Source: Phycisphaerales bacterium UBA7800
Lineage (GTDB): Bacteria > Planctomycetota > Phycisphaerae > Phycisphaerales > Phycisphaeraceae
Assembly: GCA_002480565.1 (NCBI GenBank)
Contig: DLCK01000080.1
Span: forward strand, 8,192-72,191
Reading direction: 5' to 3'
DNA: 64,000 nucleotides
Shown: in pieces, positions 18,605 to 51,629 of the stretch
Position numbering within the stretch: position 1 is the first letter of the stretch
Layout: every line of letters begins with the position of its first letter
Position numbers and translations under genes: made by a program
The notes under the pieces: generated by a model
What the model saw: the letters and a program-made list of their open reading frames with translations, nothing else
Told to the model about the DNA's origin: nothing
The model's database searches: none

Positions 18605-18701
18605 GAAACTGATGGCCTTGGATATTCTCAATTGAATGTTCAAGGAACCCCTTTGCCATGAATCGGTAACCAACCCGAAGGCAAAGGTGAGGGAAAAGAA
18701 T

Positions 18702-19604
18702 ATGACGCAGATACACACACAGCATCATGCTGCGCCGGTGAGGCGTAGTGTTGAGCACATCCTAAGTCGCATTACCGAGGTGGTGTTGCTAGCCGGAACA
18801 GTGCGCCCGACACCGTTACATAAACCACTTGGCCGCAGCGGTCTTGATCTGCCAGTTGATGAGTCGCGTTCGATTCTCAATCATTGGCAGGATCACATTT
18901 CTCATTTGGCAAATCACCTGCAACGTCAGCAATTGGATACGCACGTGATGATTGATTGGACTGCCACTGCGCCGATTACCGGATGGTCGAATTCACGGTC
19001 TATCATCAGTATCGAACGTGACCCGTTGGAACTCCGCGGGACGGGTGGTGTGCTTCACGATCTTGCCAAACGGCATAACGATGAGGATTACATGCTGGTG
19101 ATCTCAGCCAACCAGTTGCTTTTTGAACCATTGGATCAACTGGTCGTGGATATGGCGACACTCGGTGGCGATGTGCAATTGCTCTCCTATGAAGATGGAA
19201 CCCCCGCAGGCATGATGCTCTGCCGTTGTGGTGCTTTACGTGATATTGCTCCAATCGGTTTTGTCGACATGAAGGAACAAGCGTTGCCCGTGATTGCCCG
19301 TCATCACCAGACGTTGGTGCTGCGTCGAAAAAAAGCAGATGTACAACCGATCCGCACGCTTGCCAACTACCTTGAAGGTCTGCGTCGTATGCATGGGTTG
19401 GACGACAATGACATGATTTCGCAACCAATATTTAACCTTGTTGAAGTCGGTGCAGAGGTCGATCCCAAGGCCTCGCTTCGTGAAGCGGTGGTGCTTCGTG
19501 GTGCAAGAATTGAAAAAGGTGCTGTGGTCGCTCGTTCATTGATTGGCGTTGGTGCTCACATCAAGGCTGGCCAGGTAATCGTGGACCAAATGGTTATGAA
19601 ATAA
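18702..19604 (+). CDS. Degenerate nucleotidyltransferase-like protein with short C-terminal LbH
   Basis: VVLLAG...LDLPV, LRGTGGVL and a C-terminal AEVDPKASLREAVVLRGARIEKGAVVARSLIG hexapeptide run. The GGxGTR/K motif is absent. The track start 18636 is also possible. Confidence 0.6.
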   Translation: MTQIHTQHHAAPVRRSVEHILSRITEVVLLAGTVRPTPLHKPLGRSGLDLPVDESRSILNHWQDHISHLANHLQRQQLDTHVMIDWTATAPITGWSNSRSIISIERDPLELRGTGGVLHDLAKRHNDEDYMLVISANQLLFEPLDQLVVDMATLGGDVQLLSYEDGTPAGMMLCRCGALRDIAPIGFVDMKEQALPVIARHHQTLVLRRKKADVQPIRTLANYLEGLRRMHGLDDNDMISQPIFNLVEVGAEVDPKASLREAVVLRGARIEKGAVVARSLIGVGAHIKAGQVIVDQMVMK

Positions 19605-19655: not shown

Positions 19656-20537
19656 ATGATACAACTTCCCAAAACACTTTCACGCAACGGCTGGACGCCC
19701 GGGCATCTGCTCGCAGCGGTGTTCATGGTCTTGCTTGGAATTGTGGTGACATGGGATGCGTGGACGGACATCGCTCGGATGATGTGGGGCCAGGAAGAAT
19801 TCAAGCACATGCTGCTAGTGATCCCCGTGGCAATGTGGCTTGGCTGGGTGCGTCGGGCTCGTTTACGACTATGTCGACCGACAGGTCAGTTGCTTGGCGT
19901 GGTGATGATCGCATTTGGATGGGGGATTTCGTCACTTGGCTATTACAATGGTATTGAAGCGTTCTGGCATTTGGGATCACTGATGATCGTGCTGGGGTGT
20001 TTTACCACGGTGGTCGGTGCTGAAGTGATAGCTTATTTTCTGCCAAGTTTTGTGGCATTGCTGTTTCTGATTCCTGCACCGGGCATGATTCGTACGTGGT
20101 TCTCCATTCCGTTACAGGGCTTGGTTGCAAGAGCGACGCAGTTTATATTTGAAGTAGTCGGTGTGCCGGTGATTCGATCTGGATCACTGCTGTCGATTAA
20201 CGAGATGGACGTGACCATTGCCGAAGCCTGTAACGGGATGCGAATGGTGTTTGCTCTGATGTTGGTGTCTTATTGCTTCGCTTTTAGCTTGCCGTTAAGA
20301 CAGTACGTTCGTGTACTGATTTTACTCGTCTCGCCGATCTGTGCGGTTTTATGCAATATTATCCGGACGGTGGGTGCCGTTTGGGTCTATGCCAACCATC
20401 AAGAGTCGGCGGAACTGTTTCACGCGGTAAGTGGTTGGGTGATGTTGTTAGCGGCTTTTGGACTTCTGCTGGGCATGATCCGATTGATGCGATGGACGTT
20501 GGTTCCGGTGACACGGTTTACGCTGGTATACGATTGA
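19656..20537 (+). CDS. Exosortase (EpsH family)
   Basis: About 8 TM segments with the Cys/Arg/His triad in IAEACNGMR, CNIIRT and FHAVSGW. Confidence 0.9.
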   Translation: MIQLPKTLSRNGWTPGHLLAAVFMVLLGIVVTWDAWTDIARMMWGQEEFKHMLLVIPVAMWLGWVRRARLRLCRPTGQLLGVVMIAFGWGISSLGYYNGIEAFWHLGSLMIVLGCFTTVVGAEVIAYFLPSFVALLFLIPAPGMIRTWFSIPLQGLVARATQFIFEVVGVPVIRSGSLLSINEMDVTIAEACNGMRMVFALMLVSYCFAFSLPLRQYVRVLILLVSPICAVLCNIIRTVGAVWVYANHQESAELFHAVSGWVMLLAAFGLLLGMIRLMRWTLVPVTRFTLVYD

Positions 20538-20544
20538 GGTTTCC

Positions 20545-21258
20545 ATGGTTGACCATATCAAATCCAGTGTCAGGCATCGAGGCGTATTGGCATCGCCGAT
20601 ACTTGGTGTGCTTCTACTGCTTGGGATCGTCACTGAGAAGTCACTGATGCACGTACCAGTGGTAGACACGCGTCCTTATCACGCTCATGTTCGTATGGTT
20701 GCGGATCAATTGCCTATGGTGATCGGTGATTGGGTGGGGACGGACGAGGCGATTCCCACTGCAGCTGTCACAATTCTCAAGCCCAATGTGCTGATATCCC
20801 GCCGATTTATCAATGTACGGACAGGTGAGCAGGCCAATGTGCTGCTTGTACAGTGCGTTGATCGACGTGATTTGTTTGGTCATTATCCGTCAGTGTGCTA
20901 TCCCGAACAGGGCTGGCGAATAGTGTCCGATAACGATTGGAACGTCCAGGTAAATGGTGTGACGTTTCCTACCAAGTCCTACAAACTGGTTAAGCCGAGT
21001 CCCGATAATGCCGACCGAATGGTAGTAGGTAACTTCATGATTGTGCCGGATGGGCGGCTTGTGCGTGATATGACGGGGCTTGCCAGACTTTCGCCAACTA
21101 AAAGTCACAATCAATTTGGTGCTGCTCAAATGCAGGTGGTAGTTCACGGGTATCTGACCGCAAATGTGCGCGATCAGATTTTTCGTGAACTGGTAACTGG
21201 GCACTTTCCATTGATCCAAGCGATCTTGGCAGGTGAAGAACAAAGACGAGACAAATAG
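20545..21258 (+). CDS. epsI: Exosortase-associated EpsI family protein
   Basis: Single N-terminal TM, LPMVIGDWVG and GHYPSVCYPEQGW (HxPxxCYxxxGW). Directly after exosortase. Confidence 0.75.
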   Translation: MVDHIKSSVRHRGVLASPILGVLLLLGIVTEKSLMHVPVVDTRPYHAHVRMVADQLPMVIGDWVGTDEAIPTAAVTILKPNVLISRRFINVRTGEQANVLLVQCVDRRDLFGHYPSVCYPEQGWRIVSDNDWNVQVNGVTFPTKSYKLVKPSPDNADRMVVGNFMIVPDGRLVRDMTGLARLSPTKSHNQFGAAQMQVVVHGYLTANVRDQIFRELVTGHFPLIQAILAGEEQRRDK

Positions 21259-21260
21259 CT

Positions 21261-23588
21261 ATGACAAACAAAACACCCGACCAACTACTCGTAGCGGACA
21301 ACAACCATGAATGGGAGATGAACCGCTTTGACATGACAATGCAGATGCTGCGGGGACGCTGGACATTGGTAATTGTCCTGGCATTGATCTTTGCAACAGC
21401 TGGCGGCTTTGCCGGTTTTAAATTACCTAAACCGATCTATCGCTCAGAAGGTATTATCGAAATCAAACCTGTCGTCCCAAAGATTCTCACAGATGATGAA
21501 TCCAAGGACCTCCGGGCTCAGTTCGATGGCTATATCGGACAGCAGGTTGCATTGCTCAACTCCAAGGAAGTCAAGAAATCTGCCATGCTTAATGATGCTT
21601 GGCAATCCGTTAAACCTGGTACGGCTCCGGGCTTCTTTGTTCAGTTTGAAAAGAATGCAAAAGCCTTGCGACCACTCCAAAGCCAAGTGATTGAACTTTA
21701 CTTCACGCACACTGATCCTGTACTCGCCCAAAAGGGTGTCGAGGCCATGGGTAAAGCATATGAAGATCTCGTCAAGCTCAAAGATGAAGAAGACAAAGCT
21801 CAAGTCTATGACATTGTGGTCAAAGAGCACGAACGCCTTCAACGTGAGCTTGAAGATGCACGTTCTGACATTAAGTCAGCCACAAATGAAGTGGGTGCAG
21901 ATTCACTTGTTGCAATTTACGCCCAAAAGGTCCGTCGTCTTGAACGTCTCGAAGAGGAACTTGACCAAGTGCGCATGACGCTCATCGCCATGGATGAATT
22001 GACTCGTGGTGCCAATCGGACTGTAACTTTACAGTTAATCGCCTCCAGTGATCAGGAACTGCGTCGCTTGCTGCGTGACCGTTATTTAGTCGAGCGTGAA
22101 ATGACACGTCTGGCTGCTGAGTACGGGTCTGAGCATGTGGTTATGCGTCAGCAAAAATTGGTGCTTGCCAATATTCATGACCAAATCAACATGTATGTAC
22201 AGGAAGTGACCGGCAAGAGTGGCACCAACGGTAGTGGCGAAATGCTTCGTCTCAAGGCTCAAGAAAAAGGTCTTGAATCTATGTTGGAAAAAGTCAATGT
22301 TGAATTGGCCCGTATCGGTCGCAAGGAGCTTTCCCTTAGCCAGATGCGTGACAAGGAAGAAGACTTGCTTGAAAAACTCAAGCTTGCTGAAACACGTATC
22401 GAAGACCTCACCATTGATGCTGCCGCTTCAGGTCGTATCAAGGTTCTAAGTTATGGTGACGTGCCTGCATCACCTTACTCTGACCGTCGTAAACTCGCTA
22501 CAGTGGCTGGGATCGCTTTTGGTGGCTTGTTCGGATTCGGTATTGTAATCTTCATCGCTTGGCTTGATCCGAGCATCCGCAATATGGATGACTTGGAATA
22601 CACCATCAGCGACTTTAATCGTCTTGGTGTTCTGCCTCAGCTTCCCGATGACCTTACTGATGCTGAAGCGGTTACCACTGCTGCTCACTGTGTGCACAAT
22701 ATTCGTACCAAGATGCAAATTAGTGCAGTCCGTGATAACAACCACGTATTCGCTATCACCAGCTGTGGTCCAGCCAGTGGCAAGAGTTCATTGGCCATGG
22801 CACTTGGTTTGTCATTCTCAGGTACCGGTGGGCGAACGCTGCTTATCGACTGTGACCTTGTTGCCGGCGGTTTGACCCGTCGTGTCGAGGACATCATCCC
22901 AACCCAGAGCCGTCATCCACTGGTCAAGGCAGGCTTGGTGACCGAAGCACAGTTAAACAAAGCACGCATCCAAAGTCAGGAAGAAGGGCGATTCCTCGTG
23001 GAAGTCCTCGTCGAGAACGGCGACCTGCAATCCCGTGATGCCGACCGTGCAAGCAAGTTGCTTGAAGCTTCCAAACGTGGCTTGATGGATGTCATGAACG
23101 GTGACAACGTCGAAGACTGCGTGCTTGAAACTGAAATTCCCAACCTCTATGTTCTCTCGATTGGCAACGCTACCGAACACGATATCAGCCGCCTGTCACT
23201 GACTGGTATGCAACGTGTGTTTGAAGCTGCCCGTGAGAAGTTTGACAATGTCATCGTTGACACCGGCCCGACACCTGGTTCAGCCGAAGCCGCGCTGGTG
23301 ACTGCTGCCGCCGATGGTACCGTCGTCGTTGTCACCCGTGGTGAAGACCGTCTGGAAGTCAAACGTGCAACCACAGAATTGCGTCACAACAGTGTCCATG
23401 TTCTGGGTGTTGTCTACAACCGTGCGGACGACTCTGATATGGAACTCTCCGGTGCGACATCTGTGAGCCGTCGCTCAAATCGTCCTACTGGTCACAGTTC
23501 ATTACGCGTCGACGATAGCTTTAAAACCAGCACGATTGGCGGACTGGGCAGCTCAGTTGCCTTTGATGCCGGTCACGATAAGGCATAA
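21261..23588 (+). CDS. wzc: Wzc-like polysaccharide co-polymerase with BY-kinase-like domain
   Basis: Two TM segments flanking a coiled-coil periplasmic domain; Walker A TSCGPASGKS, A' LLIDCDL and B VIVDTGP. Has an insertion and lacks a C-terminal Tyr cluster (see findings). Confidence 0.85.
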   Translation: MTNKTPDQLLVADNNHEWEMNRFDMTMQMLRGRWTLVIVLALIFATAGGFAGFKLPKPIYRSEGIIEIKPVVPKILTDDESKDLRAQFDGYIGQQVALLNSKEVKKSAMLNDAWQSVKPGTAPGFFVQFEKNAKALRPLQSQVIELYFTHTDPVLAQKGVEAMGKAYEDLVKLKDEEDKAQVYDIVVKEHERLQRELEDARSDIKSATNEVGADSLVAIYAQKVRRLERLEEELDQVRMTLIAMDELTRGANRTVTLQLIASSDQELRRLLRDRYLVEREMTRLAAEYGSEHVVMRQQKLVLANIHDQINMYVQEVTGKSGTNGSGEMLRLKAQEKGLESMLEKVNVELARIGRKELSLSQMRDKEEDLLEKLKLAETRIEDLTIDAAASGRIKVLSYGDVPASPYSDRRKLATVAGIAFGGLFGFGIVIFIAWLDPSIRNMDDLEYTISDFNRLGVLPQLPDDLTDAEAVTTAAHCVHNIRTKMQISAVRDNNHVFAITSCGPASGKSSLAMALGLSFSGTGGRTLLIDCDLVAGGLTRRVEDIIPTQSRHPLVKAGLVTEAQLNKARIQSQEEGRFLVEVLVENGDLQSRDADRASKLLEASKRGLMDVMNGDNVEDCVLETEIPNLYVLSIGNATEHDISRLSLTGMQRVFEAAREKFDNVIVDTGPTPGSAEAALVTAAADGTVVVVTRGEDRLEVKRATTELRHNSVHVLGVVYNRADDSDMELSGATSVSRRSNRPTGHSSLRVDDSFKTSTIGGLGSSVAFDAGHDKA

Positions 23589-23718: not shown

Positions 23719-25170
23719 ATGACGCGAGCGATAATTCAATCCGCTTCATTGACGATTGCTGACCATCAGGACCCGACTATCTTCGGCCTGACGCCAACGC
23801 AATTGCACGACCGCTTCTGGGCGGCGCGTGGTGTGCAGGTGGTTCGCCAAGGCGAAGCTTCACAGATCGTTCCAGACGCAGAACTCTATCTGCTTGCTGA
23901 TCCGCGAACGATGACCATCTTTCAACTTCGACCGATTCTTGATGTACTGAATTGGATGAAGCCGGATGTGCTTTTTCTGCGTTTGCATGACACCAATGAA
24001 CATGGATATCGCGAACGTGCTGTGGCTGACGAAGATGGTCGCTTCGTGCGCTTTGAACGTATTTATGATGGTGGTGACTCTCGGTTGGCCAGGGTGGCAT
24101 TAACTGAAGACCTTGATCTGGCCAGACGTTGGCAGGCCGCACAATCACCGCGTGATGGTTGGCGGGCATTGCGTTATACCGTGCAACGAAGACTCCGTGC
24201 GACGAGATCTGTTGATGCCTCTGTGTATGATCGATCACTTGAAGTGGAACGCATGAAGTTTGTCGATGATCTGATTTCAGTTTGGCCACATCCCAATGCA
24301 ACCATCGGACGTGTGAACAAAATAGGGGACCAGGCATGGCTTGATCCTCAGGCGACCATTGGTAAGCAAGTTCAACTCATCGGGCCAGTATGGGTCGGCG
24401 CTGGACGCTTGCTTGATGTCGAAGTTCCCGTGGTCGGTCCTGTTGCATTGTGGGATAATCCCAAAGACCGTCCTGAGCCTGAAGATATTCAATGGTTGGC
24501 TATCGAACGTTCAAAGAGCTATGCTCGTATTGGCAAGATTAACGTCCGTGAACTCACATCACTTGAAACCTTTGGCAAGCGTGTTTTTGATATCGTGTTT
24601 GCGATGACTTTCCTGCTACTCACATCGCCAATTTATCCGATTGTCATGCTTCTGATCTATCTTGAAGACGGGCGACCGTTTTTCTTTGGACACATGCGAG
24701 AAACAGTAGGCGGACGCCAGTTCCCATGCTGGAAATTTCGATCCATGCGCAAGGATGCAGAAGATATCAAAAAGCGATTAATGGCTGAAAATAAAGCCGA
24801 TGGTCCACAGTTTTTTATCGAAGACGATCCGCGTATGACACGCATTGGAAAGATCATTCGCAAGTTCAATATCGACGAATTACCACAGTTCTACAATGTG
24901 ATCCGCGGACATATGTCCATTGTTGGCCCACGCCCTTCACCGTTTAAAGAAAACCAGTACTGCCCGTCATGGCGTGAAGCTCGCCTTTCTGTGAAACCCG
25001 GAGTCACCGGACTTTGGCAAGTTAAGCGATCACGACTCAAAGGTTTGGACTTCCAGGAATGGATTCGTTACGACGTGCAATATGTTCAGCAACGCAGTTG
25101 GCGATTGGATCTTTGGATCATAGTTCAGACGGTTAAAATTACATTAGGTACGATTTTTAAGCAAAAATGA
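23719..25170 (+). CDS. Priming sugar transferase (Bac_transf) with an extra N-terminal domain
   Basis: C-terminal KRVFDIV...KFRSM...DDPRMTRIG...IDELPQFYNV...GPRP...KPGVTGLWQV. Confidence 0.88.
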   Translation: MTRAIIQSASLTIADHQDPTIFGLTPTQLHDRFWAARGVQVVRQGEASQIVPDAELYLLADPRTMTIFQLRPILDVLNWMKPDVLFLRLHDTNEHGYRERAVADEDGRFVRFERIYDGGDSRLARVALTEDLDLARRWQAAQSPRDGWRALRYTVQRRLRATRSVDASVYDRSLEVERMKFVDDLISVWPHPNATIGRVNKIGDQAWLDPQATIGKQVQLIGPVWVGAGRLLDVEVPVVGPVALWDNPKDRPEPEDIQWLAIERSKSYARIGKINVRELTSLETFGKRVFDIVFAMTFLLLTSPIYPIVMLLIYLEDGRPFFFGHMRETVGGRQFPCWKFRSMRKDAEDIKKRLMAENKADGPQFFIEDDPRMTRIGKIIRKFNIDELPQFYNVIRGHMSIVGPRPSPFKENQYCPSWREARLSVKPGVTGLWQVKRSRLKGLDFQEWIRYDVQYVQQRSWRLDLWIIVQTVKITLGTIFKQK

Positions 25171-25217: not shown

Positions 25218-27491
25218 TTGTCAGAGACTTGTTTACACCTGATAATCAGCAATATCATGCGCAATACTGTTTTTGAAAAATCACGCAGACGTCTGTTTGT
25301 TCTGTCTGTTGGTACACTCCTGATTTCAATAGCAGGTGGCGGACTCTTTGCACTTCACCAGTGGCAATCCGTCAAACAGTATCGACAATTACGAGCCAAA
25401 GCTGATGTTGCACTTGACAATGAACAGTATGAACTTGCTGTCCATGAGCTTGCACGCTGTTTGGCTTATTATCCGCAAGATGCAAAGTTGCTTGCTGATT
25501 ATGTTGAAGCTCAGAATCATGTTGAAGATCAGACGCACCGCAATATGGAGTTGACCATTGATGTGCTTAACCGTTCATTGATGACTTATCCAGCGAGCCA
25601 CGAGGCTGCCAGTCAGTTGGCGGATATGTATCTAGCTAGTGGTGATGCCATGCAGGCGATCCATGTTGCCAATAAGACGCTCGCACGCCTGCCGGATAAT
25701 CTGCAGATGCTCAAACGTCGGGCTTTGGCAAATACAAGAATGGGGAATTTGCAGGATGCGATGGTTGATGTGGATCGCTGTATCAACCTTGAGCCTGCTG
25801 ATTACGATTTGTATTTGCTGCGTCTGATTTTGATTAAACGCAGTGATCGGACAGGTGTTGAGCTACTTGAGCATGTGCAAAATTGGCGAGCGACTTTGGC
25901 AAATAACGCATGGTCCGATGCTTTGATGGGGGTTGCGTGTCGATTGCTTGAGTTGGATCAGGAAGCATTGAATTGGTTTAAAGTTTCCGCCGCCCATGCT
26001 GGTGAAGATACGCAGTTATTGAATCTGCTCGTGAATCAGTTCAATGCTCTTGGGCATTATACGCAAGCAGACCAATTGCTTGAGAATGTCGATGTGACAA
26101 AGAGTCCGCTGTTGCTTTATCGCAAGGCATGGACTTTGTGGCAAAAGCAATTGGATCGTGATTTACTGCAACTACCTCATATGGATATCCCGCAAGTCAT
26201 CGCTTTACAGGTGATGGCTCATAAACGCAGCGGTCAAGCTGAAGCGATTAAGCCGTTACTTGCCAACCTCTCGGAACGATCCGGCGATCGTGTCGTTGGT
26301 GCATGGTTAAAGCTTTTGGAGTGTGTGTCAATTGCTAATAACGCGACACCGCTACAGATCATTGATGCTGCTCAGCAGGTTCGAATCAATTGTTCAAAAC
26401 ATGAGTTGGCCGATGTGATCCTCGCACAGCAATGGGAAGCATTGGGTGAAAAGTCAGCGGCATTGGAAGTTTGGCGATGCCTTTCTGCTACAGTCCCCAG
26501 TTGGACCATTCCATATTTGCATCAGTCGCGTTTACTTTTGGATCTTCAATACCCACTTGCAGCTGCAGCTTCAGCACGTGCGATATTGGCCCGTGATCCT
26601 GGTGATTTGAGTGCGGGTGTTCTGCTTGTCGAAGCACTTGGACGTGCTGGGACAGAGCAATCTCACCAAGTAGCCCATACGCTATTCGATGAGTTGGCTC
26701 CAGGACTTACTGATGATGTACGTTTGATTTTGGCAAGTAAATTGTTGGATACTCAGATTGCCAAGGAGTTGATTGCCAATGCCATTTCACTGGATCGATC
26801 CTTGTCGTCTCACACATGGTCTACCCTTGCCCAAATCAGTTTGGATCGCCAAGCCAGTTGGCATGATGATTGTTTGATGCAGTTGCAAAAACAACACGGT
26901 GTAACTCCGCAATGGCTTATACTCAAAGCACAAGCTTTGCACGAAGTCGGTAAGACAGTAACCGCCAGACAGTTGATTATCTCGCATGTCAACAAGCAGA
27001 CATTGCAACAGTCTGCTGACACTGTGCAATGGCAATTGGTTCAGGCACGGTTCCTTACCATGATTGGTGATCATCTTGCAGCGCATCTCGCATGGCAGCA
27101 TCTGATAAACACGTACCCCAATAATCTTACAGTAACGAAGAGCATTCTTGAGCAACCCACTGAAAATCAGCAGATGGCCCTGCGGCAGAAAGCCATTGAT
27201 CAATTGCATCGTCTGACTGGTGATTTAGCAGTGAGATGGCGGTATGAACAGGCTCTATTACATTTGAAAAAATCAACCGACAACCAATCATTGGCGGCGA
27301 CCACTCTGCTGATGCATGATGCATTGAATATTGCACCGTCAGCGATTGAGTGTCGCATGATATTAATCAAGTGCATGCAAAAAATCAGAAGTGCTCAAGG
27401 TATACAGGAACAAGCGCAAGCCATTTTGCAGGTTGATCCATACAATACAACAGCCAAGTCATTACTGCGTCAGGATGATAAGTCGCTTTGA
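25218..27491 (+). CDS. Membrane-anchored tetratricopeptide-repeat protein
   Basis: One N-terminal TM followed by all-helical TPR-like segments (e.g. LARCLAYYPQDAKL, AILQVDPYNTTA). ATG 25257 is an alternative start. Confidence 0.7.
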   Translation: MSETCLHLIISNIMRNTVFEKSRRRLFVLSVGTLLISIAGGGLFALHQWQSVKQYRQLRAKADVALDNEQYELAVHELARCLAYYPQDAKLLADYVEAQNHVEDQTHRNMELTIDVLNRSLMTYPASHEAASQLADMYLASGDAMQAIHVANKTLARLPDNLQMLKRRALANTRMGNLQDAMVDVDRCINLEPADYDLYLLRLILIKRSDRTGVELLEHVQNWRATLANNAWSDALMGVACRLLELDQEALNWFKVSAAHAGEDTQLLNLLVNQFNALGHYTQADQLLENVDVTKSPLLLYRKAWTLWQKQLDRDLLQLPHMDIPQVIALQVMAHKRSGQAEAIKPLLANLSERSGDRVVGAWLKLLECVSIANNATPLQIIDAAQQVRINCSKHELADVILAQQWEALGEKSAALEVWRCLSATVPSWTIPYLHQSRLLLDLQYPLAAAASARAILARDPGDLSAGVLLVEALGRAGTEQSHQVAHTLFDELAPGLTDDVRLILASKLLDTQIAKELIANAISLDRSLSSHTWSTLAQISLDRQASWHDDCLMQLQKQHGVTPQWLILKAQALHEVGKTVTARQLIISHVNKQTLQQSADTVQWQLVQARFLTMIGDHLAAHLAWQHLINTYPNNLTVTKSILEQPTENQQMALRQKAIDQLHRLTGDLAVRWRYEQALLHLKKSTDNQSLAATTLLMHDALNIAPSAIECRMILIKCMQKIRSAQGIQEQAQAILQVDPYNTTAKSLLRQDDKSL

Positions 27492-47066: not shown

Positions 47067-48476
47067 ATGTCCACTAAACCCAACATCATCTTACTCGTCG
47101 GTGAAGACACCGGCCGACATCAACATTGCTACGGTGACCGCTTTGCCAAAACCCCCAATCTTGATCGCTTGGCAAGCGAAGGTTGCCTGTATACCAATGC
47201 CTGTAGTACCGCGCCGGTTTGTGCGCCATCGCGATCAACTTTGGTGATGGGACAGTTTGCCAACAAGGTCGGTTCGCATCACATGCGGTCAACCTTGCTA
47301 AATCCTCTACGATTGATGACGCATGAGTTGGCCGATGCTGGCTATCACGTGAACTGGGCCAACAAGACCGACTTTAACTTTGAACCGCCAGACGATTTTG
47401 CTCACGAAACTTCGGATTGGATCACAACACTTGAGCAGGGCGAATATCCAACTGACAAGCCGTTTTTTTATTACTTCAACTTCGGCATGACGCATGAAAG
47501 TGGGATGTGGCCTGAAGGCTCGTCTGGCAATCCATGCACTCATGTCGAGGAGCCTTGCGTCGATCCTAAACTCACTGAGGGGATTGATGTGCCACCCTAT
47601 CTGCCTGATACGCCAGTCGTCCGTAGTGAGTTGTATCGCTATTACCAGAAGCTTCATCAGCAGGACCAGCAGATCGGTCGAGTTCTCAACGCGCTCGATG
47701 GACAAGGCTTAACCCAGAACACCGTTGTTATCTATCTCACTGATCATGGCAGAGGACAGATCCGCGAAAAACGTTGGCTCTATGAAGCAGGTATCCATTT
47801 ACCTCTTATTATCCGCGCGCCGGGAGTTACAACACCAGGCAGCTTCTGCGAACAACTTGTGAGTTGGGTCGACATTGCACCGACCCTGCTAAGTTTGGCA
47901 GGTGTTACGATTCCTGACAGCTATGATGGCCGTGTTATTCTCGGTGAAAACCGACAGTCTGAACCGCAATGCATTTTTGCTGCCCGTGATCGCATGGACG
48001 AATGTTTCGATCGCGTCCGTGCAGCAAGGAGTCGCAGATTTTTGTATCTCCGCAATGACTTCCCGCAATTACCCTGGGCTCAGCGATTGCGATACATGGA
48101 GATCATGCCCGCCACGCGAGAGGTTCGACAGATGCATGTTGATGGCCAATTGAACTTCCCCGCAAACCTGTTTATGCAACCGACCAAACCCGCCGAAGAG
48201 TTGTACGATATCGTGGTCGATCCGCACTGTATTCATAATCTCGCAGATGATCCACGCTATGCCGACACGCTCGCGACCCATCGCAATGAGGTTGCTCACT
48301 GGATCAAACGCATTGATGACAAGGGCTATCAAACCGAACGTCAGTTAATTGAGCAGGGCATTGTCAAAAATCGACTGGATGATGAATACGCGCTGCGTAT
48401 CGAACCATTAACGGAACCCACTCGCATGGGCGGAGTGTATGACTCACATCTCACACAAGAGTGTTTGTCAGATTGA
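47067..48476 (+). CDS. Cys-type S1 sulfatase
   Basis: KPNIILLVGED, formylglycine motif CAPSRSTLVMG, LTDHG, EELYDIVVDP. No signal peptide evident. Confidence 0.92.
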   Translation: MSTKPNIILLVGEDTGRHQHCYGDRFAKTPNLDRLASEGCLYTNACSTAPVCAPSRSTLVMGQFANKVGSHHMRSTLLNPLRLMTHELADAGYHVNWANKTDFNFEPPDDFAHETSDWITTLEQGEYPTDKPFFYYFNFGMTHESGMWPEGSSGNPCTHVEEPCVDPKLTEGIDVPPYLPDTPVVRSELYRYYQKLHQQDQQIGRVLNALDGQGLTQNTVVIYLTDHGRGQIREKRWLYEAGIHLPLIIRAPGVTTPGSFCEQLVSWVDIAPTLLSLAGVTIPDSYDGRVILGENRQSEPQCIFAARDRMDECFDRVRAARSRRFLYLRNDFPQLPWAQRLRYMEIMPATREVRQMHVDGQLNFPANLFMQPTKPAEELYDIVVDPHCIHNLADDPRYADTLATHRNEVAHWIKRIDDKGYQTERQLIEQGIVKNRLDDEYALRIEPLTEPTRMGGVYDSHLTQECLSD

Positions 48477-48496: not shown

Positions 48497-50164
48497 TTAC
48501 GCAACCGATTGATTGGTATCAGTATCTTTAGAGTCGGTTAGCCGGATGGCGTTTGCGGCATTCAGACTCACGACACGATCGCGTCCCTGTTCCTTTGCCA
48601 TGTATAGGAATTCATCTGCTCTTTGGATTAATGAGCCGGCGGTGGTCCCATGTGCGGGATACATTGCCACACCGACTGAGATCGATAGTTTGCCCAGAGA
48701 TTTTTGATCATGTTGCAGGTCAAGTCTGCGGATGGCTTCACATAATTTTTCAGCCACATGCACCGCATCCTCCGGCGAGATGTCCGGGCAGACGATACAA
48801 AATTCTTCGCCACCGTAACGGCAGGTCGTATCTTCAATCCGCAGATTATGCTTCATTTCACTGGAAATATTACTCAATACCACATCGCCAGCTTTATGAC
48901 CGAAGGTATCGTTGAAGCGTTTGAAGTGATCGACATCCAGCATCATCACAGCCATATTCGACTGCTGTCGTTCTGATCGACTGACCATTTGATCCAATGC
49001 TTCAAGCATGTAACGACGGTTGTACAGCCCTGTAAGAGGGTCACGGATTGCCTGTTCACGAAGACTGTCTCTTAGCTGAATATTGGCTAAAGCAAGCCCG
49101 ATCTGCTCTGCAACGGATGCGATGAGTTTGATATCCTCACTGCTTAAATCTTCGTCATGGTTCATCGCATGAAACACACCAATCGTTTCACCTTGAGCAA
49201 TCAATGGGATGCAGATAGTTTGGCGATCAATGTCGTCATTCATGTGATCACATTGAATGTGAAGATTATTTGCTTTGGAAATATGCTGATGACCTCGTCG
49301 TAACGCCCAGCATTCATTAGGCAGATACGCATTGCGACCTGGCCAATCCTTGCCCCAACTCAGTAAGACATCCAAACGATTCCGTGAAGATTTGATGATG
49401 GCAATTGCGCCTGAAATATTGGGTAATAACACTGGCATGATTTTATTGACGACCGATGCGGCTTCATCAATTGAAGCGCAAGTATTAAGCAAGCCTGTCA
49501 TAGACTGCATGATGGTGATAATCCGAGTGCGGTCTTCAACACGGTTTTCAAGAATGCTTTTTTCATGAAGTACAGCTTTGTTGACAATCTGGCCTGCAAA
49601 CAACCCCAGGAGCATCACCACAAAGAGGCCAATACAGCTGGAGAGACCAAAAATCCAACGCAGTTTTGAAACTGCTGCTGCAATATCAGACAACGGCATT
49701 GACGCACGTGCCGTAATCTTTCTGTCATTTGAATCAATCACTTTTGCTGCTGCGACGTACAACAAATCCTGCTTGATGGTTGAACTATATCGCTTGGATG
49801 TGCTTAAGCCCGATGTCATTGCGCCGACAATTTCCGGGCGATCCGCATGGTTCTCGATTTTGATTACTTCATTGACGGATAACTTGGAATCACCAAGCAC
49901 CACCCCATCTTGATCAATGAACGTGATGCGGGCTTTACTGGCTTTTCCCAGACGATCAGCCAACTCATCAATCGCTGCAAAATTCTGCTGATCCGAAAGT
50001 GTCTTGAAAGATTCTATCGCACTTGTGGCAGTACGTCCCAACTCCGTTTCAATTCGATTTCCCAGGTTGGTCTTGGTGAATTCCTGGATAAAGAAAAAAC
50101 TCACAACGACCATGAAAACCATGATGCAAAGTGGGATGGCGATGATTTTATGTTGGATCGACAT
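48497..50164 (-). CDS. Membrane sensor-GAF-GGDEF diguanylate cyclase
   Basis: Two TM segments around a sensor domain, a GAF-like region, DPLTGLYNRR, DHFKRFNDTFGH, GGEEF, and an RxxD I-site (RIED). Confidence 0.9.
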   Translation of the reverse strand: MSIQHKIIAIPLCIMVFMVVVSFFFIQEFTKTNLGNRIETELGRTATSAIESFKTLSDQQNFAAIDELADRLGKASKARITFIDQDGVVLGDSKLSVNEVIKIENHADRPEIVGAMTSGLSTSKRYSSTIKQDLLYVAAAKVIDSNDRKITARASMPLSDIAAAVSKLRWIFGLSSCIGLFVVMLLGLFAGQIVNKAVLHEKSILENRVEDRTRIITIMQSMTGLLNTCASIDEAASVVNKIMPVLLPNISGAIAIIKSSRNRLDVLLSWGKDWPGRNAYLPNECWALRRGHQHISKANNLHIQCDHMNDDIDRQTICIPLIAQGETIGVFHAMNHDEDLSSEDIKLIASVAEQIGLALANIQLRDSLREQAIRDPLTGLYNRRYMLEALDQMVSRSERQQSNMAVMMLDVDHFKRFNDTFGHKAGDVVLSNISSEMKHNLRIEDTTCRYGGEEFCIVCPDISPEDAVHVAEKLCEAIRRLDLQHDQKSLGKLSISVGVAMYPAHGTTAGSLIQRADEFLYMAKEQGRDRVVSLNAANAIRLTDSKDTDTNQSVA

Positions 50165-50453: not shown

Positions 50454-51629
50454 TTATTCTGCTAACGCGCCAGTTGGTTGATTGGCTGAATGGACAGGTT
50501 GTAAGGGTAGGCTTTGAGCGTCGATTGAATCCCAATCCACTCCGTTGCGCAGACGCTTACCTAACTCGATGAGTGTTGCATAATCTGTTGGATCAATCGA
50601 ACCATCAGGTAATGGACCGGTGTTGAGCAGTACCTTGGCATTGATCGAACGGGCATATGCATAGCACTTTAAAACATCATCCACGTTACGGTGTTCGCCA
50701 TCGTTGTACTTGTTATATCCCCACACGCGAGGTTGGAGTGTCTCGCAGATTTCCCATGGCTTGTCTTTGTTTTTCTCCCATGCCTTAAGTGAACTTTTGC
50801 CAGCTTTACCCTTGAGTTTTTCAGATAAGTCCCCCGCAGAACGTTCAGGGGCGGCATAGTCTTCTTCACCGTTTGCACCTTGCTTAAACGAGATTAAACA
50901 CTGTGGCTGAAGACTGCGGATCAGCGCATAGGTTTCGTCAATCGCAAAGAGGTCCGGTCGACAATGATATGCTGTAATCGGGTCAAACCAGAGACCTGCA
51001 ATCGGGCCGTACTGTGTGAGTAGTTCTCGGAGTTGTGCATGAACGAAATCCATGTAGTGACAAAAGTCCGCATCTTTTTCCCACAGGTACCGCGGGTCCG
51101 GTTCACTGTAATTGGGCTGTGCCGGTTCCCAGAACACGCGCGGGTAGAAGTATGGATGTTGCCAGTCAGCTGAGTAGGAGTAGTACAGGAACAGTCCGAT
51201 TTTTTTCTTCTCACATGCCATGGTCAGTTCCGCAACAAGGTCTCTGCCGCATGGGGCTTGGACGCTGTTGTAGTCCGATTGCTTGGTGTTAAATAAACTG
51301 AATCCCTCATGATGTCGGGTGGTGAACGTGATGTACTGCATGTCTGCAGCGATCGCTAAATCCGTAATCGCATCTGCATCAAAGTTCTCCGCGGTGAATT
51401 GATCCATGAGTTTTGAATAGCGTGAGTGCGGAATTTTTTCATGGAACATAGCCCATTCGCCATGTCCTAACACGCTGTAAAGTCCGTAGTGAATGAACAA
51501 GCCATAGCGTGATTGTTTGAACCATTCGAGTGTGGCTTTGCGTGGGTTTTGAGCATATAGCGACTCATAACCTTTGAGAAATGAGGGGATATGCTGGTCG
51601 GCCGGATGCGTGATGATTGCTTGATTCAT
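50454..51629 (-). CDS. GH29 alpha-L-fucosidase
   Basis: WFKQSRYGLFIHYG, TTRHHEGF, LWFD nucleophile region, LLNTGP. Confidence 0.88.
   Translation of the reverse strand: MNQAIITHPADQHIPSFLKGYESLYAQNPRKATLEWFKQSRYGLFIHYGLYSVLGHGEWAMFHEKIPHSRYSKLMDQFTAENFDADAITDLAIAADMQYITFTTRHHEGFSLFNTKQSDYNSVQAPCGRDLVAELTMACEKKKIGLFLYYSYSADWQHPYFYPRVFWEPAQPNYSEPDPRYLWEKDADFCHYMDFVHAQLRELLTQYGPIAGLWFDPITAYHCRPDLFAIDETYALIRSLQPQCLISFKQGANGEEDYAAPERSAGDLSEKLKGKAGKSSLKAWEKNKDKPWEICETLQPRVWGYNKYNDGEHRNVDDVLKCYAYARSINAKVLLNTGPLPDGSIDPTDYATLIELGKRLRNGVDWDSIDAQSLPLQPVHSANQPTGALAE

Follow-up and report, generated by a model that had tools for sequence, protein, structure and literature searches.

A degenerate MshEN_N-like module nested in the ATPase domain of a planctomycete exosortase-locus co-polymerase, with most relatives predicted to be c-di-GMP receptors

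The window analyzed here, a 64,000-nucleotide stretch of contig DLCK01000080.1 from Phycisphaerales bacterium UBA7800, carries a one-directional exopolysaccharide (EPS) cluster in which an exosortase and an EpsI-like protein are followed by a Wzc/PCP-2a-like polysaccharide co-polymerase (PCP), a priming glycosylphosphotransferase and a tetratricopeptide repeat (TPR) protein; glycosyltransferases and GalE are also encoded (Table 1). The co-polymerase is predicted to run from a first transmembrane (TM) segment through a periplasmic coiled-coil-rich stretch and a second TM segment to a cytoplasmic P-loop ATPase domain. Nested within that domain is an insert that, judging from sequence comparison and structural modeling, is homologous to MshEN_N, the four-helix module that binds cyclic di-GMP (c-di-GMP) in MshE. 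Close relatives of the co-polymerase are found in the complete genome of 'Planctomycetes bacterium syqfu' (84% identity) and in a Phycisphaeraceae metagenome-assembled genome (89%).

Table 1. Coordinates of the co-polymerase, its elements and the genes discussed in the text (window positions; aa, amino acids).
Feature	Position	Strand	Basis
Exosortase, EpsH family	19656..20537	+	TIGR02602, 114.3 bits (cut-off 105.55)
EpsI-like exosortase-associated protein; stop 2 nt ahead of co-polymerase start	20545..21258	+	TIGR02914, E=2e-7, below cut-off; Pfam EpsI at the syntenic site of locus L004
Wzc/PCP-2a-like co-polymerase gene, 775 aa	21261..23588	+	Open reading frame list
TM segment 1, aa 34-53	21360..21419	+	Kyte-Doolittle peak
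TM segment 2, aa 412-435	22494..22565	+	Kyte-Doolittle peak
HCVHNIR, aa 476-482, at the site of the BY-kinase EX2RX2R ring-contact motif	22686..22706	+	Sequence comparison with family
Walker A GPASGKS, aa 503-509	22767..22787	+	Sequence reading
Walker A' LLIDCDL, aa 527-533, followed by VAGGLT where BY-kinases have Arg (DxDxR)	22839..22859	+	Sequence reading
Nested MshEN_N-like four-helix insert, 58 aa, aa 545-602	22893..23066	+	Length comparison, ungapped family alignment, AF2 model
Degenerate motif 1 QSRHPLVKAGLVTEAQLNKARIQS, aa 549-572, equivalent to MshE R9-Q32	22905..22976	+	Alignment register
Spacer QEEGR, 5 residues, aa 573-577	22977..22991	+	Sequence reading
Degenerate motif 2 FLVEVLVENGDLQSRDADRASKLL, aa 578-601, equivalent to MshE R38-Q61	22992..23063	+	Alignment register
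Walker B NVIVDTGP, aa 663-670	23247..23270	+	Sequence reading
C-terminal tail without Tyr; S/T-rich SGATSVSRRS (aa 730-739, nt 23448-23477); IGGLGSSVA (aa 759-767, nt 23535-23561)	23448..23585	+	Family tails compared
Priming polyprenyl-phosphate glycosylphosphotransferase	23719..25170	+	TIGR03025, E=2e-73
TPR protein, weakly PrsT-like	25218..27491	+	TPR gene also at the syntenic site in loci L003 and L004
GAF-GGDEF diguanylate cyclase, intact GGEEF	48497..50164	-	Pfam GGDEF, E=6e-51

Motif reading and structural comparison both assign the cytoplasmic domain to the MinD/ParA-like P-loop fold with Walker A, A' (DxD) and B motifs. An AlphaFold2 (AF2) model of residues 477-775 (mean predicted local distance difference test score, pLDDT, 86.5) matched the bacterial tyrosine kinase (BY-kinase) structures Wzc (3LA6), CapAB, VpsO, BceF and Etk in Foldseek with E ~1e-12. 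Named families are reached less securely. The NCBIfam scan returned eps_fam at 88.8 bits together with EpsG, EpsF and pepcterm_ChnLen, all under cut-off, and Pfam gave weak AAA_31, CbiA and GNVR matches. The N-terminal part has two hydrophobic segments, and its Wzz, GNVR, EpsF and ChnLen matches are weak and uniformly below cut-off.

The insert is most directly visible as extra length. In the window protein 130 residues separate the DxD from Walker B. Family members that lack the insert have 72 here and ordinary BY-kinases 73-78, which puts the length of the insert at 58 aa. It starts approximately 12 residues past the Mg-coordinating DxD of Walker A'. The initial annotation of this DNA had placed an insertion of about 50 aa at positions 22900-23065, past Walker A', and its placement agrees with the module that we delimit at 22905-23063, while its size was an underestimate. 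That module consists of two 24-residue motifs joined by a 5-residue spacer. The turn glycines G558 and G587, each at position 10 of its motif and equivalent to MshE G18 and G47, lie 29 residues apart, as had been read earlier from the two LVxxG segments. Throughout, a window residue number equals the MshE residue number plus 540. The insert also aligns without gaps and in register to the orthologous inserts of two relatives, P0003 and P0004.

To place the insert among known domains, we compared it to NF053729, the NCBIfam model named 'cyclic di-GMP-binding domain, MshE-related' (53 profile positions, cut-off 38 bits). The window copy scored 25.7 bits (E=7e-6) as an isolated insert and 20.7 bits within the full protein, in both cases under the cut-off. 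The P0003 and P0004 inserts scored 61 and 58 bits and covered all 53 positions, and 126 of 150 distinct family inserts matched the model at E<=1e-9, which corresponds roughly to its cut-off. A profile built from 40 canonical family inserts reached T. thermophilus PilF with E=1.5e-25, and its match to V. cholerae MshE (5HTL, aa 7-62) has E=6e-15 and is in exact register. The window insert in turn aligned to this family profile in register (hhalign probability 96.8%, E=2e-10), and its direct alignment to MshE, also ungapped and in register, shows 42% identity over 36 aa.

Structural modeling leads to the same domain family. Within the kinase-domain model the insert forms four helices with pLDDT mostly above 90, and a 70-aa model of the insert alone retains the four helices at pLDDT 77. 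Because the whole kinase-domain model matched only BY-kinases in Foldseek, the fold of the insert was searched with the separate insert-only model, whose 15 best PDB matches were all MshEN/GSPII domains, including PilF-GSPIIB, MshE (5HTL) and X. citri PilB-N. These matches had TMq values of 0.55-0.63 and probabilities of 0.90-1.00, and 14 of the 15 superposed with a root-mean-square deviation (RMSD) of 0.7-1.7 A over 40-51 columns; the remaining one, the nuclear magnetic resonance model 8pkz, gave 8.4 A over 64 columns. Further down the same list come fumarase C-terminal helices, which we regard as look-alikes. The MshEN-like fold proposed in the initial annotation is thus borne out by profile matches to NF053729 and MshE and by the AF2 and Foldseek results alike.

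The corresponding Pfam model, T2SSE_N/MshEN, matched neither the full window protein nor the window insert nor the canonical orthologous inserts, so that of the hidden Markov model (HMM) comparison suggested earlier the Pfam part came back empty and a match, itself under cut-off for the window copy, was supplied by NF053729. Sub-threshold Pfam matches of the canonical inserts to FumaraseC_C, DUF4388 and DUF2949 were taken as helical look-alikes and not as relatives. Pipelines that use Pfam only miss the nested MshEN_N architecture, since Pfam-A yields no T2SSE_N/MshEN match on the P0003, P0004 and P0005 inserts that NF053729 detects clearly; precomputed Pfam lists give CbiA, AAA_31 or ParA only. 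The relaxed regular expression of Wang et al. fails on motif 1 in this family, whose position 7 frequently bears a charge and whose position 24 is Ala or Ser; we therefore relied on HMM and position-specific scoring.

Could the resemblance to MshEN be fortuitous, the insert being an unrelated helical linker or a low-complexity expansion? The silence of the Pfam model even on canonical relatives and the Foldseek E-values above 0.1 obtained with the small model are what one would expect in that case. However, NF053729 recognizes the great majority of the orthologous inserts, the family profile reaches MshE in exact register, the window insert is gapless against its orthologues, and the best structural matches without exception belong to a single domain family. 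The MshE profile match, the NF053729 family matches and the hhalign alignment together effectively rule out chance resemblance, to which we assign a negligible probability. On this profile and model evidence, the insert is a true evolutionary homologue of the MshEN_N four-helix module.

The window protein belongs to a large planctomycete family. A profile of the kinase domain plus insert, searched against 1.84 billion representatives clustered at 50% identity, returned 1015 matches at E<=1e-30. The best 150 of these scored above 346 bits, are mostly ~800 aa long, and all align end-to-end with the query profile. In every one of the 146 among these best 150 for which our parser could measure the Walker A'-to-Walker B or DxD-to-GLxD spacing, the insert is present; none was seen without it. 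The question raised earlier, whether some planctomycete homologues retain the RLG triplets, is answered positively, with both motif glycines kept in 134 of 163 inserts in addition to the NF053729 matches described above. Across 162 inserts, motif 1 has the consensus [KR]82% [ILV]93% G85% ..L92%...G79%-L-I-T..Q-L77%..A-L72%..A, and motif 2 the consensus [RK]68% [LIV]93% G86%-E.L89%-V..G91%-Y-L...D-L..A-L69%..Q90%. Approximately 80-85% of present family members keep the pattern [RK][LI]G...G...L...L...Q and are predicted from it to be direct c-di-GMP receptors.

The history of the insert was traced on a neighbor-joining (NJ) tree computed from the ATPase domain after masking of the insert (~270 columns, without support values). 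Insert-less family members are basal in this tree, and degenerate forms occur at no fewer than five separate places. The insertion probably arose once in a planctomycete lineage of these co-polymerases. Three proteins that lie within insert-bearing branches (P0002, P0042 and P0051) retain ~10 aa of the insert or no trace of it, which suggests secondary deletion of the MshEN_N module; P0002 shares 53% identity over the aligned span in alignment A1 and 44% by BLASTP. Degenerate inserts of other sub-lineages are also exact in length. At position 3 of motif 1 (window aa 551), Glu is found in ~10% of family inserts (PLE, SVE, PIE) across several degenerate sub-lineages, and this recurrence hints that such inserts have an alternative state in common and are not simply decaying at random.

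The window copy is among the most degenerate of these inserts. On a 19-point motif score the 163 inserts are bimodally distributed, 137 scoring 16-19 and 24 scoring 10-15, and the window copy, at 10, is tied for lowest. At the 12 positions that contact the ligand in MshE it reads R9Q, L10S, G11R, L25L, L29R, Q32S, R38F, L39L, G40V, L54A, L58S and Q61L, such that 10 of 12 are replaced and only L565 and L579 are retained. The two RLG triplets have become QSR in motif 1 and FLV in motif 2, exactly as the initial annotation had read them, and the LxxxLxxQ ends, here L565...R569..S572 and A594...S598..L601, keep one of six positions. Motif 1 (QSRHPLVKAGLVTEAQLNKARIQS) departs from the family consensus at positions 1, 2, 3, 5, 21 and 24, and motif 2 (FLVEVLVENGDLQSRDADRASKLL) at positions 1, 3, 11, 17, 21 and 24. 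Residues of the bundle core are retained (L554, G558, L559, V560, L565, L583, V584, G587 and L589).

What these substitutions would mean for ligand binding can be gauged from characterized modules. In the canonical module the Arg of each RLG triplet serves in stacking, its Leu forms a triad with the two Leu of LxxxLxxQ, and the Gln of the latter binds ribose/phosphate. In MshE, the guanine Hoogsteen edge is recognized through the backbone amides of G11-D12 and G40-D41; mutation of G11 abolishes c-di-GMP binding, mutation of L10 raises the KD 36-fold, and G11L and G40I were among the binding-site mutants assayed (PMC5013675). The inability of XpsE to bind was attributed to G11V, L29R, R38G, G40L, L54H, L58C and Q61V (PMC5013675). 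PilF GSPII-A likewise does not bind c-di-GMP: minor departures from the motif can be enough to lose binding, and a return to the consensus did not by itself recover it (PMC12002112). The window copy carries the same kinds of changes as XpsE and more, and canonical c-di-GMP binding by the window protein is therefore judged unlikely; by analogy with XpsE-N and PilF GSPII-A, we expect that it does not bind the messenger in the canonical mode. Gating of this particular protein by c-di-GMP, which the initial annotation had left uncertain, thus becomes improbable with the replacement of 10 of 12 contacts, G11 and G40 among them.

The degenerate module has nonetheless not been released from constraint. 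Compared to two close orthologues, the insert has a ratio of nonsynonymous to synonymous substitution (dN/dS) of ~0.07 at dS ~1 and 91% amino-acid identity, while in the same comparison the rest of the ATPase domain is 94-95% and the periplasmic part 81-87% identical. These values indicate that the degenerate insert is under strong purifying selection and not decaying; hence the module still does something. Because selection is still strong, we expect the window module to be kept as part of the ATPase ring in a structural, regulatory or docking capacity that needs no ligand.

Such constraint would also be seen if the window insert still bound c-di-GMP, with lower affinity or in some non-canonical way, and so gated the co-polymerase directly. 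The helical fold persists, as do the 24+5+24 spacing and the two turn glycines; the orthologous inserts are canonical, the organism encodes a GGDEF cyclase, and R551 and R577 together with the retained L565 and L579 could contribute to a site. In MshEN, moreover, binding depends mainly on hydrophobic and backbone contacts, and single changes of charged residues cut affinity less than fivefold (PMC5013675). However, 10 of the 12 contact positions are changed: G11R and G40V fall at the guanine-reading backbone amides, where bulky side chains (G11L/I, G40I) are reported to abolish binding, the leucine triads are down to one Leu each, the NF053729 score lies below the cut-off, and XpsE is a proven non-binder with fewer changes. 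We regard a receptor of this kind as quite unlikely. Alternatively, the degenerate insert may now serve to dock a protein, such as a PilZ-type adaptor or another adaptor carrying c-di-GMP, or to receive a different ligand, for instance another nucleotide, in which case control by the messenger would be indirect or changed. Among the top matches of the insert model is X. citri PilB-N, a degenerate MshEN_N domain whose binding partner is PilZ (PDB 7LKM); purifying selection acts on insert surface residues, and several independent degenerate sub-lineages hold the exact 58-aa length. Against this stand the lack of an evident candidate partner gene beside the locus, the absence of any PilZ-like or second MshEN-like motif from the 64-kb window, and the purely analogical nature of an argument drawn from the Xanthomonas PilB-N/PilZ/FimX system. 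A specific docking or alternative-ligand role is, on balance, unlikely.

We also asked whether the host domain can be considered a tyrosine kinase. Three hallmarks, the C-terminal Tyr cluster, EX2RX2R and the DxDxR arginine, are found in the ordinary BY-kinases that came up alongside the family in our searches. At the EX2RX2R site of the planctomycete family, E..R..R occurs in 1 of 174 insert-bearing and 0 of 30 insert-less members, and H..H..R in 125 of 174 and 27 of 30, respectively. At the DxDxR site (22854-22877 in the window) the family sequence is DCDLVGGGLT (DCDLVA in the window protein), and DxDx[RK] is found in 1 of 174 family members, as against 20 of 22 ordinary BY-kinases. The last Tyr of the window protein is Y719, leaving no C-terminal cluster. 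In the family tails Tyr residues are few and scattered (mostly 0-2), where the tails of the ordinary enzymes are YY-rich. The designation 'Wzc kinase domain' in the initial annotation accordingly holds for the fold but otherwise goes too far: the domain is a BY-kinase-fold ATPase whose tyrosine autophosphorylation is doubtful on the evidence of its motifs. Since the hallmarks of tyrosine autophosphorylation are absent, the switch used by this family is unlikely to be the Wzc phosphotyrosine cycle. The family tails have conserved elements of their own, an S/T-rich stretch (SGATSVSRRS in the window protein; RSISGISLRSI and TTTKRLSSFDR in relatives) and a C-terminal motif GPxAxAVA or [FL]GP[LV]xxAVA (IGGLGSSVA in the window protein), which in the AF2 model is a short helix past a disordered linker. 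These elements could represent a Ser/Thr phosphorylation or docking site.

Comparison with known systems helps to define what is new. The insert shares with the MshEN_N/GSPII domains (MshE 5HTL; PilF GSPII-B/C) the four-helix bundle and the two 24-residue motifs with 5-residue spacer; the family consensus [RK][LI]GxxL...G[LY][LIV]....L...L..Q is in register with theirs, and they provide the best structural matches of the window insert model. They differ in that they stand N-terminal to the ATPases of type II secretion systems and type IV pili, whereas the planctomycete module is nested in a P-loop domain and lacks MshEN_C; in addition, motif 1 of the family ends in Ala or Ser instead of Gln, and the window copy has neither RLG triplet nor most of the contacts. 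XpsE-N of X. campestris, PilF GSPII-A and X. citri PilB-N resemble the window copy in keeping the fold while motif residues are substituted, but are again N-terminal domains of secretion or pilus ATPases. In the c-di-GMP-activated NfrB of E. coli a C-terminal MshEN module controls a polysaccharide-synthesis enzyme, and the family inserts match NfrB at ~482-544; NfrB, however, is a synthase-dependent glycosyltransferase family 2 (GT2) enzyme with a terminal fusion and not a Wzx/Wzy-type co-polymerase ATPase. With Wzc, Etk, CapAB, VpsO and BceF (PCP-2a), the window protein has in common the Walker A/A'/B P-loop fold and, by its hydrophobic segments, apparently the two-TM topology; they are also its best full-domain structural matches, and it departs from them in its missing Tyr cluster, HxxHxxR in place of EX2RX2R, the absence of Arg past DxD, the 58-aa nested MshEN_N, and the conserved S/T-rich tail with its GPxAxAVA motif.

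The closest precedent is EpsG. The combination 'MshEN_N - AAA_31' was already catalogued for the BY-kinase EpsG of Methylobacillus, in beta- and gamma-proteobacteria (Wang et al. 2016, PMC5013675, Suppl. Table 4), and the earlier impression that a c-di-GMP-gated co-polymerase would be a design unrecognized in Wzx/Wzy systems must be corrected to this extent. EpsG of Methylobacillus sp. 12S (TIGR03029) likewise joins MshEN_N and a BY-kinase-fold ATPase, its EPS locus being of the exosortase type (EpsH/EpsI), and the family inserts match positions 4-60 of the TIGR03029 profile. There, however, the N-terminus of a separate cytoplasmic kinase subunit carries the module, while in planctomycetes it lies between Walker A' and B of a fused PCP-ATPase. 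The window protein reaches TIGR03029 with only 66 bits (cut-off 313.8), through its kinase part alone, placing it outside the EpsG type, and the nested planctomycete form is apparently a fusion independent of EpsG. Our literature search found no experimental study of an MshEN-bearing BY-kinase or co-polymerase, no c-di-GMP binding test on EpsG and no description of the nested family. What is new is hence the nested position and the planctomycete family, the MshEN_N/BY-kinase pairing itself being already annotated.

The genomic setting is shared with canonical relatives. The orthologues P0021 and P0030 lie in the same cassette of WecG glycosyltransferase, unknown gene, exosortase, EpsI, co-polymerase, priming transferase and TPR protein. 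Directly upstream of the exosortase, a protein of ~315-320 aa without family assignment is encoded in the window (18636-19604, +), in L003 (6741-7697) and in L004 (6598-7539), and looks like a conserved component of the planctomycete exosortase EPS cassette. In the priming transferase, the N-terminal ~270 aa (23719-24530, +) have no family match and the catalytic Bac_transf domain begins at ~aa 274. No GGDEF, EAL or PilZ gene was found within 10 kb of the locus in the window or in two canonical loci, and a scan of all 64 kb yielded no second MshEN-like motif. The organism can nevertheless make c-di-GMP, to judge from the GAF-GGDEF protein with intact GGEEF listed in Table 1, which lies 25 kb from the co-polymerase locus and is not part of it. 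This cyclase, which has a weak N-terminal Cache-like match, lies between genes for a sulfatase (47067-48476) and an alpha-L-fucosidase (50454-51629).

How a nested module might act can be considered in the light of CapB and MshE. In CapB, Mg-bound waters are held by the two aspartates of the DxD, and octamer contacts are made by R81, two residues further on in the loop beta2-alpha4 (PMC2422856). In the planctomycete proteins, the MshEN_N bundle is spliced in ~12 residues past the DxD, tethered at both ends, beyond the position of this octamer-contact loop. A ligand-induced rearrangement of the bundle could then be passed straight to the catalytic and ring-contact loop; such a rearrangement is plausible because the first helix of MshE is broken to admit c-di-GMP (PMC5013675). 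In canonical members, c-di-GMP is accordingly predicted to tune the ATPase activity of the co-polymerase, its oligomerization, or both.

Taken together, we favor the reading that the window insert is an MshEN_N homologue nested in the P-loop domain of an exosortase-locus Wzc/PCP-like ATPase, that its relatives are mostly predicted c-di-GMP receptors, and that the window copy is degenerate and likely non-binding, with a probability of roughly 0.65 for the whole. Several points weigh against it. Both 'binds', for the canonical members, and 'does not bind', for the window copy, are predictions from sequence, and such predictions are imperfect and can fail in either direction, as PilF GSPII-A illustrates (PMC12002112). 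The Foldseek E-values for the 70-aa insert model are weak (0.16-1), and a dS of ~1 is near saturation. The role retained by the window copy could be non-canonical binding of c-di-GMP or binding of another nucleotide. The scenario of a single gain and repeated degeneration is provisional, given an NJ tree of ~270 columns without support values, and where the insert would lie with respect to the ATP site and the ring interface is taken from the CapB literature. A more ambitious proposal is that across this large family the nested sensor has replaced the Wzc phosphotyrosine switch, c-di-GMP driving ATPase activity or ring assembly directly and with it Wzx/Wzy-type EPS polymerization and export, and that the window lineage and at least four others have re-purposed the sensor for another ligand or partner while keeping its exact size under purifying selection. 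This we advance tentatively, at less than even odds.

Direct control by c-di-GMP is known for synthase-dependent polysaccharides, through BcsA, PelD, Alg44 and NfrB, and the documented controls of Wzx/Wzy-type systems are mostly transcriptional or act via Wzc tyrosine phosphorylation. In a co-polymerase ATPase that carries its own, mostly canonical, MshEN_N sensor, c-di-GMP would be linked directly and post-translationally to Wzy-type polymerization and export. For the window gene itself, 'c-di-GMP receptor' and 'tyrosine kinase' are both probably incorrect annotations, and the weight of the finding lies in the family-level prediction and in the canonical/degenerate pairs rather than in this gene alone. 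The orthologous loci offer such pairs as natural material for understanding how MshEN receptors lose or change ligand specificity, in an under-studied phylum in which aggregation and holdfast/EPS biology matter.

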